Origin: Escherichia coli
GTDB taxonomy: Bacteria > Pseudomonadota > Gammaproteobacteria > Enterobacterales > Enterobacteriaceae
Length of the DNA: 59,744 bases
Direction: 5' to 3' (one strand)
Assembly (NCBI RefSeq): GCF_003334255.1
Contig: NZ_QOWU01000029.1
The translations under genes were made by a program, and so were the position numbers. This document shows, piece by piece, positions 19,926 through 24,086 of this stretch (its first letter is position 1; each line of letters opens with the position of its first letter). The notes beneath the pieces were generated by a model, which was given only the letters and a program-made list of their open reading frames with translations, ran no database searches and was not told where the DNA came from.

Positions 19926-20939
19926 TTATCGCGAAGGAGCAATGAGTGAGTCGCGGCGGATCAGTTTTCCGCTGAAGGTTTTCGGCGGTGAGAAATCCCC
20001 GCCATCGAGCATAAAAATCAGCCGTCCAATAATTTCCTGAATCATCTCAGTCACCGGAATTTTTACGCTGGAGAGCGCCGGAACGGTGTAGGGGGCAATA
20101 GCGATATCATCGAATCCGATAACTGACACCTGCTCTGGCACCGCTACGCCGCGCTCGTGTAACGCTTTCATCGCACCTATCGCCATATCGTCGTTACTGG
20201 CAACTAACGCGCTAAATTTAGCCCCACGTTCGAGCAACATTTCTACCCCTTCGGCCCCGCTGGCAGGCGTCCATTTACCGTTAGCGATAAGTTTTTCATT
20301 GAGCGCAATACCATGCTGCGCCAGCGCGTCTTTATACCCGGCAAGACGTTCAATGCTGGTGGGGGAATCCATCGAGCCGGTAAGGAAAGCAATCTCCTGA
20401 TGCCCGGCGTTTATCAACTCTGCCACGGCGTTAAAACTGGTCTGTTTATGATCGCACCAGACGCTATGGCTGCTGTTTTTGCGCAGGCGGCGATTAAGCA
20501 CCATTATCGGCTGACTGTGCGCGTCAATGATGTCATCGATCTCATCCACGCTTAAAAAACGCGGGTAAATCATGATCGCGTCGCAGCGCAGATCCAGCAG
20601 ATACTGAATCGCCTGGCGCTCTTCTTCTGCGCTGTGTTTACCATCTGCCAATAGCAACTGCCGCCCTTTCTCTTCCGCCATTCGCGCGGCATGAAAGAGT
20701 AATTCACTAAAATAAATGCCGTGGTAAAGCGTGTTGGTCACTACCAGCCCCAGCGTCTGAGTACTCTTCGCCGACAGATTGCGCGCCAGCAAGTTTGGAC
20801 GGTAACCGCTCTCTTCTACCGCCTGAAACACGCGATCTTTAGTCTCCTGGCTGACGTAGCCATTACCTGAAAGCACGCGGGAAACGGTCGCTTTTGAAAC
20901 CCCGGCGCGCTTCGCCACTTCCAGCATCGTCGTCATCAT
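19926..20939 (-). CDS. ascG: LacI/GalR-family repressor of the asc operon, about 337 aa; start uncertain, track ORF runs to 21002
   Basis: ORF track; N-terminal HTH (ATVSRVLSG) and periplasmic-binding-like domain. Confidence 0.9.
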   Translation of the reverse strand: MMTTMLEVAKRAGVSKATVSRVLSGNGYVSQETKDRVFQAVEESGYRPNLLARNLSAKSTQTLGLVVTNTLYHGIYFSELLFHAARMAEEKGRQLLLADGKHSAEEERQAIQYLLDLRCDAIMIYPRFLSVDEIDDIIDAHSQPIMVLNRRLRKNSSHSVWCDHKQTSFNAVAELINAGHQEIAFLTGSMDSPTSIERLAGYKDALAQHGIALNEKLIANGKWTPASGAEGVEMLLERGAKFSALVASNDDMAIGAMKALHERGVAVPEQVSVIGFDDIAIAPYTVPALSSVKIPVTEMIQEIIGRLIFMLDGGDFSPPKTFSGKLIRRDSLIAPSR

Positions 20940-21195
20940 TTTCATCCCTTTACACGCAATCAACGCAGTGTACTGCACCGTTTGCCGATTGTCCTTGCAC
21001 AATCGGCGGGAAAAATATTCAGGTGACCGGTTTCACAAATATAAAAAATGAACAATTCACTCTCTTGCTTATTTAGTGACAACTATTCATGATTTTGTAA
21101 AACCGGTTTCTTAATTCCGTTTCAGCATCGGCATTTTTCCGTCACGTCGACTGATAACAACTACATCTACCCTACTGATAACAGGATAAAATCCG

Positions 21196-22653
21196 ATGGC
21201 CAAAAATTATGCGGCGCTGGCACGCTCGGTGATAGCGGCACTGGGCGGCGTTGATAACATCTCGGCGGTCACGCACTGTATGACGCGGTTGCGCTTTGTT
21301 ATCAAAGATGATGCACTTATCGACAGCCCGACGTTAAAAACCATCCCCGGCGTGCTCGGCGTGGTACGTAGTGACAACCAGTGTCAGGTGATTATCGGCA
21401 ATACCGTTTCACAAGCCTTTCAGGAAGTCGTCAGCCTGCTGCCGGGAGATATGCAGCCCGCACAGCCCGTGGGTAAACCCAAACTCACGCTACGTCGCAT
21501 TGGTGCGGGGATCCTCGATGCGCTGATCGGCACCATGTCACCGCTGATCCCGGCGATTATCGGCGGATCGATGGTCAAACTGCTGGCAATGATCCTCGAG
21601 ATGAGCGGCGTGCTGACAAAAGGATCGCCGACCTTAACCATTCTGAATGTGATTGGTGACGGTGCTTTCTTCTTCCTGCCGCTGATGGTCGCGGCATCTG
21701 CCGCCATCAAATTTAAAACCAATATGTCGCTGGCGATTGCCATCGCGGGTGTGCTGGTACATCCGAGTTTTATTGAACTGATGGCGAAAGCGGCCCAGGG
21801 TGAACATGTCGAATTTGCCCTGATTCCGGTCACCGCGGTGAAATACACCTACACGGTGATCCCGGCGCTGGTGATGACCTGGTGCCTGTCATATATCGAA
21901 CGCTGGGTGGACAGCATTACACCGGCGGTGACCAAAAACTTCCTCAAACCAATGCTGATTGTGTTGATTGCCGCACCGCTGGCAATCCTGCTGATTGGCC
22001 CGATTGGTATCTGGATCGGTAGCGCCATTTCGGCGCTGGTTTACACCATTCATGGTTATCTGGGCTGGCTTTCAGTCGCCATTATGGGCGCGCTGTGGCC
22101 TCTGCTGGTAATGACCGGGATGCACCGCGTCTTTACGCCAACCATCATTCAGACCATTGCCGAAACCGGCAAAGAAGGGATGGTCATGCCGTCAGAGATC
22201 GGCGCTAACCTGTCGCTGGGCGGTTCATCACTGGCAGTGGCGTGGAAAACGAAAAACCCGGAACTGCGTCAGACGGCGCTGGCTGCGGCGGCATCAGCCA
22301 TTATGGCGGGGATTTCCGAACCGGCGTTATATGGCGTGGCGATCCGCCTGAAACGTCCGCTTATCGCCAGTCTTATCAGCGGTTTTATTTGCGGCGCGGT
22401 TGCCGGTATGGCGGGGCTTGCCAGCCACTCAATGGCAGCGCCGGGGCTATTTACCAGCGTGCAGTTCTTCGATCCGGCGAATCCAATGAGCATCGTCTGG
22501 GTGTTCGCGGTCATGGCGCTGGCGGTGGTGCTGTCGTTTATCCTCACACTGTTGCTCGGCTTTGAGGATATTCCTGTTGAGGAAGCGGCTGCCCAGGCGC
22601 GAAAGTATCAGAGCGTACAACCGACCGTCGCCAAAGAAGTAAGTCTTAATTGA
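21196..22653 (+). CDS. ascF: PTS beta-glucoside (arbutin/salicin/cellobiose) EIIBC, 485 aa
   Basis: ORF track; EIIB cysteine motif near the N-terminus and a polytopic EIIC domain. Confidence 0.94.
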
Positions 22654-22661
22654 GGATGAAA

Positions 22662-24086
22662 ATGTCAGTATTTCCAGAAAGTTTTTTATGGGGCGGCGCG
22701 CTTGCCGCCAACCAGTCTGAAGGTGCGTTCCGTGAAGGTGACAAAGGTCTGACCACTGTCGATATGATCCCACACGGCGAGCATCGAATGGCGGTGAAAC
22801 TGGGGCTGGAAAAACGTTTTCAGTTGCGAGATGACGAGTTTTATCCCAGCCATGAGGCGACGGATTTTTATCATCGTTATAAAGAAGATATCGCCCTGAT
22901 GGCAGAGATGGGATTCAAGGTTTTCCGTACCTCAATTGCCTGGAGCCGTCTCTTTCCGCAGGGCGATGAAATCACGCCCAATCAGCAGGGCATTGCTTTT
23001 TATCGTTCTGTCTTTGAAGAGTGTAAAAAGTACGGTATCGAACCGCTGGTCACGTTGTGCCACTTCGATGTGCCGATGCATCTGGTCACCGAATATGGCT
23101 CCTGGCGTAACCGCAAGCTGGTGGAGTTTTTCAGCCGCTACGCCAGAACCTGCTTTGAAGCATTTGATGGTCTGGTGAAATACTGGCTAACCTTCAATGA
23201 AATCAACATTATGTTGCATAGCCCGTTCTCCGGCGCGGGTCTGGTGTTTGAAGAAGGTGAAAATCAGGATCAGGTGAAATATCAGGCCGCGCATCACCAG
23301 CTGGTTGCCAGTGCGCTAGCCACCAAAATCGCCCATGAGGTTAACCCGCAAAATCAGGTGGGCTGTATGCTGGCGGGCGGTAACTTCTACCCTTACAGTT
23401 GCAAGCCGGAAGATGTCTGGGCGGCGCTGGAGAAAGACCGGGAAAACCTGTTTTTTATCGATGTGCAGGCGCGGGGCACGTATCCGGCTTACTCTGCCCG
23501 CGTATTCCGCGAAAAAGGGGTAACCATCAACAAAGCACCGGGCGATGATGAAATCCTGAAAAACACCGTCGATTTTGTCTCTTTCAGCTATTACGCCTCG
23601 CGCTGCGCCTCGGCGGAGATGAACGCCAACAACAGCAGTGCGGCGAACGTGGTGAAATCGCTGCGTAATCCGTATCTACAGGTGAGCGACTGGGGCTGGG
23701 GAATTGATCCACTCGGTCTGCGTATCACCATGAATATGATGTACGATCGTTATCAGAAGCCGCTGTTTCTGGTGGAAAACGGCCTGGGCGCAAAAGATGA
23801 ATTTGCTGCCAATGGCGAGATTAACGACGACTATCGCATCAGCTACTTACGCGAACATATCCGCGCAATGGGCGAAGCGATTGCAGACGGCATTCCGCTG
23901 ATGGGCTACACCACATGGGGCTGTATTGATTTAGTTTCCGCCTCTACGGGTGAAATGAGCAAACGCTACGGCTTTGTCTTTGTTGACCGTGACGACGCAG
24001 GCAACGGTACGCTGACGCGCACGCGTAAGAAATCATTCTGGTGGTATAAAAAAGTGATTGCCAGTAATGGGGAAGATTTAGAGTAG
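22662..24086 (+). CDS. ascB: 6-phospho-beta-glucosidase (GH1), about 474 aa; the track ORF starts 12 nt upstream at 22650
   Basis: ORF track; GH1 signatures (TFNEIN, ENG catalytic motifs). Confidence 0.95.

Follow-up and report, generated by a model that had tools for sequence, protein, structure and literature searches.

The asc genes and their products

The window, a stretch of 59,744 nucleotides of Escherichia coli DNA, carries the well-known, canonical E. coli asc operon, which sits between hydN and hycI as it does in K-12. A divergent arrangement of ascG and ascFB had been predicted from the letters of the DNA, and it is borne out by the open reading frames and by the RefSeq annotation of the corresponding, essentially identical part of MG1655, which supplies the gene coordinates used here. 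The outer limits proposed for the module, 19926 and 24086, coincide with the last bases of two stop codons, that of ascG (minus strand) and that of ascB, respectively. The features of the coding part are as follows.

19926-20936, minus strand: ascG, LacI/GalR-family repressor, 336 aa (ORF; RefSeq annotation of the corresponding K-12 DNA; DNA identical to MG1655; PDB 3dbi and 3brq)
21196-22653, plus strand: ascF, PTS EIIBC for cellobiose, arbutin and salicin, 485 aa (ORF; RefSeq annotation of the MG1655 stretch; NF007311)
22614-22615, plus strand: putative internal ascB start (PMC4488073, transferred by sequence identity)
22662-24086, plus strand: ascB, GH1 6-phospho-beta-glucosidase, 474 aa (ORF; RefSeq annotation of the MG1655 stretch; NF007356)

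All three reading frames are intact, as had been proposed, and each gene is identical in DNA to its MG1655 counterpart; the comparison with MG1655 revealed no IS element, frameshift or coding change in ascG, ascF or ascB. A split ascG is found in only 1 of 4701 records, which carries IS621. The identification of the module as asc also stands, both through the 99.98% identity of the locus to K-12 and through the matches of its products. AscF matches the NCBIfam equivalog NF007311 with 1025 bits (cutoff 722) over residues 1-485 of 485, and AscB matches NF007356 with 1088 bits (cutoff 623). AscG matches PDB 3brq ('HTH-type transcriptional regulator ascG') with E=1.8e-193 and PDB 3dbi with E=6.5e-220, while among the NCBIfam equivalogs none scored above its cutoff, the best being GalR (222 bits against 557). 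Across its full length AscG is 28% identical to LacI, with the HTH aligned, and it combines an N-terminal HTH with a sugar-binding core. All 80 orthologues share its N-terminal sequence AGVSKATVSRVL, which includes the HTH recognition helix, and R20 of AscG aligns with R22 of LacI.

The gap between ascF and ascB is 8 nt long and contains a GAGGA ribosome-binding site. The annotated start of ascB is the ATG at 22662; the mechanical ORF begins at a TTG at 22650. An Rfam scan of 19000-25000 gave no match.

Organization of the ascG-ascF control region

The spacer between the divergent genes measures 259 bp. The original prediction gave 193 bp, a figure that stemmed from a TTG start for ascG at 21002, where the longest mechanical ORF begins. 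We rejected this start because the 22-codon extension that it implies is interrupted by an in-frame stop in 34 of 80 orthologous loci and shows no conservation when translated. Annotation and conservation both place the start of ascG at the ATG at 20936 (MTTMLEV). Use of an ATG one codon upstream (20939) would make AscG 337 aa long. The elements that we recognize in and around the spacer are listed below.

20937-21195: ascG-ascF divergent control region, 259 bp (annotation)
20967-20995, minus strand: candidate ascG promoter, with -35 AGGACA (20995-20990), a 17 nt spacer and -10 TACACT (20972-20967)
21022-21037: CRP-like box GGTGA-N6-TCACA, 9/10 (pattern search)
21022-21035: AscG box 1, GGTGACCGGTTTCA, 11/14
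21065-21093, plus strand: candidate ascF promoter, with -35 TTGCTT (21065-21070), a 17 nt spacer, -10 CATGAT (21088-21093) and a putative start near 21100
21098-21111: AscG operator box 2, promoter-proximal, TGAAACCGGTTTCT in K-12 and TAAAACCGGTTTCT in the window
21099: G to A substitution, position 2 of AscG box 2

The AscG palindrome, TGAAACC-GGTTTCA, is found at two sites in the control region, the first of which, box 1, overlies the CRP-like box in Escherichia; a passage of PMC3505978 cites two sites for AscG at ascFB. The K-12 sequence of box 2 is the AscG site of PascF in Table S3 of PMC8667592, and the same paper describes AscG as repressing strongly when it binds at +1. All 80 species loci contain box 2, and 10 of its 14 positions do not vary among them. 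The arms of the CRP-like box are conserved in 81/81 sequences, its N6 being variable, and in 73 of 80 loci the box lies a constant 67-68 nt from box 2. More generally, the -35, the -10, box 2 and the CRP box keep a fixed spacing across genera. A TGTGA at 21096-21100 was also considered as a CRP half-site lost through the substitution at 21099, and was discarded: most other species have TGTGG there, and it is the box at 21022-21037 that is conserved and holds a fixed spacing to box 2.

A consensus promoter and terminator scan returned no promoter of at least 9/12 in the spacer, so we relied on conservation and a crude PWM instead. The candidate ascF promoter, which at 8/12 is too weak for the consensus scan, has PWM rank 2; across 80 species its TTG and ATGAT columns are conserved and no indel occurs ahead of box 2. 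The candidate ascG promoter has PWM rank 2 on the minus strand, shows conserved columns across 80 species and lies inside the conserved block CGCAGTGTACTGCAC (20963-20977). In the available literature we found no native ascF transcription start site, PMC4488073 mapping only an engineered promoter and the internal ascB start listed above.

These elements suggest how the operon would work. The EIIBC encoded by ascF imports arbutin, salicin and cellobiose and phosphorylates them, and the phospho-beta-glucosidase encoded by ascB cleaves the phosphorylated sugar. The ascF promoter appears weak and looks CRP-dependent, with the centre of the CRP box about 70 bp upstream of the putative start. AscG bound to the 14-bp palindrome of box 2 would cover that start and keep the promoter off, and in Escherichia it would also occupy box 1, overlapping the CRP box. 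The original prediction held that the operon is normally silent, and published descriptions of K-12 agree, PMC4488073 calling it cryptic. In K-12, the mutations known to activate the operon are insertions of IS186 into ascG (PMC3505978), and complete loss of AscG still gives just poor growth on cellobiose (PMC4488073).

A rare substitution in operator box 2

It had been argued that expression in this strain depends on ascG and the control region, which we judge correct, and that both should be compared with reference strains. The comparison uncovered no IS element and one point mutation, located in the operator. Apart from this G to A change at 21099, which is non-coding, MG1655 and the window agree throughout 16300-24967. 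The change lowers the match of box 2 to the palindrome to 12/14, from 13/14 in K-12, where the box is already off the perfect palindrome at position 14. The G at position 2 is invariant in the species loci (80/80), none of which has A (0/80). Within E. coli, A was found in 2 complete genomes versus 4668 with G (about 4670), and it appears in 0 of 120 metagenome contigs.

Could the A be a sequencing or assembly error, the true sequence being the K-12 allele? A single base is at stake, and the 5426 complete genomes searched do not include the source genome for a cross-check. We nevertheless regard an error as very unlikely, since two complete assemblies independent of each other, SCU-106 and 2017.06.05CC, carry the same allele, and position 21099 does not fall within a homopolymer longer than 4 nt. 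SCU-106 gives the only exact 81-mer match; it is 98.6% identical to the window overall, and its AscG protein is different. The A allele stands on two haplotypes about 2% apart, so it arose more than once.

The substitution might instead act on the promoter, with or without AscG, by creating a new weak -10-like hexamer or by changing the choice of start site. The crude PWM does list, for the A allele only, a TAAAAC (21098-21103) paired with GTGACA (21076-21081) across a 16-nt spacer (score 4.86), and 21099 is within about 2 nt of the putative start. However, TAAAAC does not have the T that is nearly invariant at -7, the pair scores below the conserved TTGCTT/CATGAT pair, and other genera do not conserve the GTGACA element, all of which makes such an effect highly improbable in our view.

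An effect on AscG binding has more to recommend it. The change falls within the operator and alters a base that all 80 species share. The mutated G is the sixth base from the dyad, like G5 of the lac operator, and G5 is contacted by Arg22 of LacI. By analogy, the guanine at 21099 would be the counterpart of the lac operator guanine read by Arg22, with Arg20 of AscG making the contact. It is plausible that the SNP is a weak operator-constitutive allele.

Since the coding sequences are identical to those of K-12, the default expectation is the cryptic phenotype of K-12. On balance, we lean towards reading the locus as a canonical asc operon, K-12-like by default, in which the G to A change at the invariant base of box 2 would weaken AscG binding, giving a mildly operator-constitutive, leaky operon with AscG itself intact. 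The competing view, that the SNP is neutral or too weak and the operon as silent as in K-12, an ordinary cryptic asc locus with a private polymorphism, is one that we take seriously while holding it to be the less probable. The coding sequences that are the same as in K-12 speak for it; so do the 12 of 14 consensus bases that box 2 retains and the untouched box 1, both of which count against derepression, and the imperfection of the K-12 box at position 14. Rare private SNPs are moreover to be expected, the nearest complete genomes differing at 2 sites in 25 kb. Repression at the AscG levels of K-12 is reportedly tight, which might cushion a moderate drop in affinity. Against neutrality, 80 species and more than 99.9% of E. 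coli genomes have the same base here, which is not what would be expected of a base of no importance.

A bolder version of the leaky-operon reading is that 21099 A is a natural operator-constitutive allele that wakes the cryptic asc operon, leaving AscG and its other targets, such as prp, unaffected, and that at least two E. coli backgrounds acquired it independently. We advance this only tentatively and consider it rather doubtful as a whole; if it were true, the recurrence of the A allele would point to occasional selection in the gut for the use of aryl-beta-glucosides or cellobiose. Among cryptic gene systems asc is a textbook case, and the persistence of such operons has long been a question. 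The module described here is itself ordinary; what sets it apart is a very rare change at an operator position that otherwise stays the same from Escherichia to Aeromonas. Were repression loosened, the change would offer a natural route to expression without destruction of the repressor, and the three carrier strains would be material for testing whether asc is silent in the wild. Were it without effect, this would simply be a K-12-type asc locus.

Comparison with known systems

The closest relative is the asc operon of K-12 itself (Hall and Xu 1992; Ishida, Kori and Ishihama 2009), which has the same genes, order, orientation, hydN/hycI flanks and proteins, with both AscG boxes and the CRP-like box equally placed. 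The two differ in the base at 21099, G there and A here; in K-12, moreover, activation has come via IS186 in ascG and not via operator changes.

With the Oc mutations of lac the substitution shares a point change in an operator half-site, at a guanine six bases from the dyad, with the gene for the LacI-family repressor intact, whereas the effect in asc is only predicted. The systems also differ in that AscG is without a tetramerization tail and in that the second AscG site overlaps the CRP box rather than being a distant auxiliary operator. PtxS, at the kgu operon of Pseudomonas, is likewise a LacI-family repressor acting on an identical 14-bp palindrome, TGAAACCGGTTTCA, over the transcription start site (PMC11678583). 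Unlike AscG, it governs a 2-ketogluconate regulon and has a known effector, and it is a separately named regulator, not an AscG orthologue.

Finally, the bgl and chb operons of E. coli are, like asc, silent in laboratory strains and become active by mutation when selected on arbutin, salicin or cellobiose (PMC4488073). Their control is of another kind, resting on antitermination (BglG) and H-NS silencing in bgl and on ChbR/NagC in chb, and neither has a LacI-type repressor with an AscG operator.

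The asc module and its surroundings

The original prediction of a beta-glucoside module with ascG divergent from ascFB is borne out, in that ORF calling recovered three intact reading frames in the layout claimed, and family models, AscG structures, K-12 matches and flanking genes concur on their identity.

Genes of the asc module
19926-20936, minus strand, ascG (LacI-family repressor): RefSeq annotation, 336 aa; mechanical ORF 358 aa, minus strand, ending at 19926
21196-22653, plus strand, ascF (PTS EIIBC): RefSeq annotation; mechanical ORF of the same span, 485 aa
22662-24086, plus strand, ascB (6-phospho-beta-glucosidase): RefSeq annotation, 474 aa; mechanical ORF 22650-24086

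When 19793-24244 was compared by megablast with 5426 complete E. coli genomes, a collection that does not include the source genome, full-length matches at 100.0% rounded identity were obtained in K-12 MG1655, C600 and J53, among others, and the matched stretches are annotated as ascG, ascF and ascB. The pairs hypF-hydN and hycI-hycH flank the module, in the K-12 order. AscF scored 1025 bits against the NCBIfam equivalog 'PTS cellobiose/arbutin/salicin transporter subunit IIBC' (cutoff 722), AscB 1088 bits against the NCBIfam 6-phospho-beta-glucosidase model (cutoff 623), and AscG matched the deposited AscG structures 3dbi and 3brq with E < 1e-190. An Rfam search of 19000-25000 returned no match. 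The locus is an already known system whose coding content is intact and identical to that of K-12.

Directly downstream of ascB lies a REP/BIME-type repeat (24095-24129, with a second GC-rich arm to ~24177). It accounts for the many matches of the 4.4-kb query within each genome (median 31), and an unrelated contig also matches 24095-24129 over 35 nt. On the other side, the hydN-ascG spacer (19778-19925) holds a sigma-54-like element, TGGCATGATTTGTGA, at 19830-19816 on the minus strand, and an inverted repeat, GATGTCATCG...CGATGACAT (19884-19912), adjoining the ascG stop codon. They probably represent the hydN-hypF promoter, which depends on formate/FhlA, and the upstream activator site of that promoter; an RpoN genomic SELEX peak has been reported between hydN and ascG (PMC8743547).

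AscG operators and probable promoter geometry

The control region had been put at 193 bp, a figure that comes from the longest ORF, starting at TTG (21196 - 21002 - 1). We place the ascG-ascF spacer instead at 259 bp (20937-21195), because the 22-codon extension from TTG 21002 is interrupted by an in-frame stop in 34 of 80 orthologous loci from other species and is not conserved as protein across the 80. The annotated start, ATG 20936 (MTTMLEV), sets the helix-turn-helix at the extreme N-terminus, like LacI; starting instead from the neighbouring ATG chosen for the PMC8667592 primers would make the spacer 256 bp.

In Ishida's 2009 study the AscG consensus is reportedly TGAAACC-GGTTTCA, with site 1 overlapping the CRP box. 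A search with the palindrome TGAAACCGGTTTCA found the promoter-proximal operator (box 2, 21098-21111) with 2 mismatches and a second site, GGTGACCGGTTTCA (box 1, 21022-21035), with 3. This agrees with the two AscG sites at ascFB mentioned in a passage of PMC3505978, which cites Ishida 2009. Table S3 of PMC8667592 lists TGAAACCGGTTTCT as the AscG binding sequence from PascF; this is the K-12 sequence of 21098-21111, and the window carries TAAAACCGGTTTCT, altered at position 2.

The comparison drew on a single ascG locus from each of 80 species, whose AscG identities range between 66% and 99%; the genera include Escherichia, Citrobacter, Enterobacter, Klebsiella, Raoultella, Kluyvera, Leclercia, Aeromonas and Sodalis. 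The divergent ascF-ascG arrangement and the promoter-proximal box are kept in all 80. The AscG sequence bearing the recognition helix, AGVSKATVSRVL, is invariant in these loci, and therefore one DNA specificity is expected throughout.

Base counts at box 2 over 80 loci
Position 1: T 79, C 1
Position 2 (base mutated in the window): G 80, invariant
Position 3: G 63, A 17
Positions 4 and 5: A 80 each
Positions 6 and 7: C 80 each
Positions 8 and 9: G 80 each
Positions 10 and 11: T 80 each
Position 12: T 70, C 9, A 1
Position 13: C 80
Position 14: C 66, A 9, T 5

An alignment of 81 ascG-ascF spacers delimits the elements of a candidate ascF promoter.

Candidate promoter elements upstream of ascF
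21022-21037, CRP-type site: arms GTGA and TCAC conserved in all genera, middle six bases variable
21065-21067, conserved TTG of the candidate -35, TTGCTT
21088-21093, candidate -10, CATGAT: 17-nt spacer after the -35, within a conserved [C/G]ATGAT-T-N-TG

The [C/G]ATGAT-T-N-TG block abuts box 2 without indels, and the CRP centre lies 67-68 nt from box 2 in 73/80 loci. With a start near 21100, as this geometry suggests, box 2 would span about -2 to +12 and the CRP centre would fall at about -70.5, a class I position. A consensus promoter scan missed the candidate promoter because it matches only 8/12, and a crude PWM placed it at rank 2. A repressor sitting over the start of a weak, CRP-dependent promoter fits the strong repression by AscG at +1 of a synthetic promoter (PMC8667592) and the case of PtxS, whose own start site is covered by an identical palindrome (PMC11678583). 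We rejected TGTGA (21096-21100) as a CRP half-site, since most other species read TGTGG.

The AscG-like ACCGGTTTCA over the CRP box is Escherichia-specific, with a weaker version in Kluyvera; in most genera the middle of the CRP box has unrelated bases. Competition of a second operator with CRP may contribute to the 'cryptic' state of asc specifically in E. coli. Upstream of ascG, CGCAGTGTACTGCAC (20963-20977), nearly invariant over 80 species, harbours a palindrome, GCAGT-GT-ACTGC, and overlaps a candidate ascG -10, TACACT; it could also be the site of some regulator.

A substitution in the promoter-proximal operator

Comparison with reference strains, as had been proposed, revealed a single point difference: base by base over 16300-24967, the window departs from MG1655 only at 21099, A in place of the K-12 G. 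The megablast bit scores (8216 over 4452 bases) are consistent with one mismatch per top hit. The nearest complete genomes, FORC_081, A14, NCTC9041 and others, have 2 differing sites per 25 kb.

To count alleles we used a 55-mer centred on 21099, with each 28-nt seed forced to span the variant base; among complete E. coli genomes, 2 carry A and 4668 carry G. A metagenome scan with R at 21099 found G in all of the contigs among the matches listed, at least 120. We considered that the A might be a base-calling error; the same base stands in two complete genomes, SCU-106 and 2017.06.05CC. SCU-106, the sole exact match to an 81-mer around 21099 among complete genomes, is identical to the window across 20437-23506, is 98.6% identical overall and differs in its AscG protein, and the two may share the allele through descent or recombination. 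In 2017.06.05CC, the sequence around the site differs from the window at 139 of ~6800 bases, and therefore the change arose at least twice. G to A at 21099 is thus a rare, apparently recurrent substitution of an invariant operator base.

In the lac system, Arg22 contacts G5 of the operator, and changes at G5 have operator-constitutive (Oc) character. R20 of AscG aligns with LacI R22, and the mutated G, like G5 of the symmetric lac operator, is the sixth half-site base from the dyad. With the base invariant as well, weaker AscG binding at the start-site operator, and hence leakier ascFB to some degree, is the most likely effect. The mutated box 2 still matches at 12/14 positions, box 1 is intact, and even K-12 without any AscG grows poorly on cellobiose (PMC4488073). 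We also considered that the substitution is neutral. Alternatively, the change could act on the promoter, as the A allele makes TAAAAC, paired with GTGACA over 16 nt with a PWM score of 4.86, but this hexamer lacks the T at -7. The operator substitution is the single notable feature here, and the hypothesis that it suggests, partial derepression, would be cheap to test.

Distribution of asc and other features of the window

Of the 5426 complete genomes, 4700 have ascG and the spacer and 726 (~13%) lack them, in keeping with the reduced prevalence of ascG reported for ExPEC (PMC6550539). In an O25b:H4-ST131 genome (NZ_OX637961.1) the hydN-hycI interval has, in place of asc, three small genes (a 145 aa hypothetical, a 139 aa HTH-domain protein and one of 61 aa), possibly a cassette of toxin-antitoxin type. 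An IS-split ascG was found in 1 of 4701 records from complete genomes with the gene, carrying IS621; the laboratory activation route, IS186 in ascG according to a passage of PMC3505978, is therefore uncommon in sequenced isolates.

Elsewhere, otnK/ygbK (44007-45269) has an extra C at 45154 relative to MG1655, giving a 420-aa OtnK ORF (388 aa in the K-12 form); the frameshift appears to be in K-12. Differences from MG1655 cluster in two patches, 14456-16258 (35 SNPs around norW-hypF) and 55000-59400 (~70 at the cysD-iap end), that look like recombination tracts; the 59 kb are otherwise near-identical. Beside iap, a type I-E CRISPR array (59374-59646) has only 5 repeats of CGGTTTATCCCCGCTGGCGCGGGGAACAC and is shorter than the 763 bp of K-12; its alignment with K-12 ends past the first repeat, and therefore the spacers differ.
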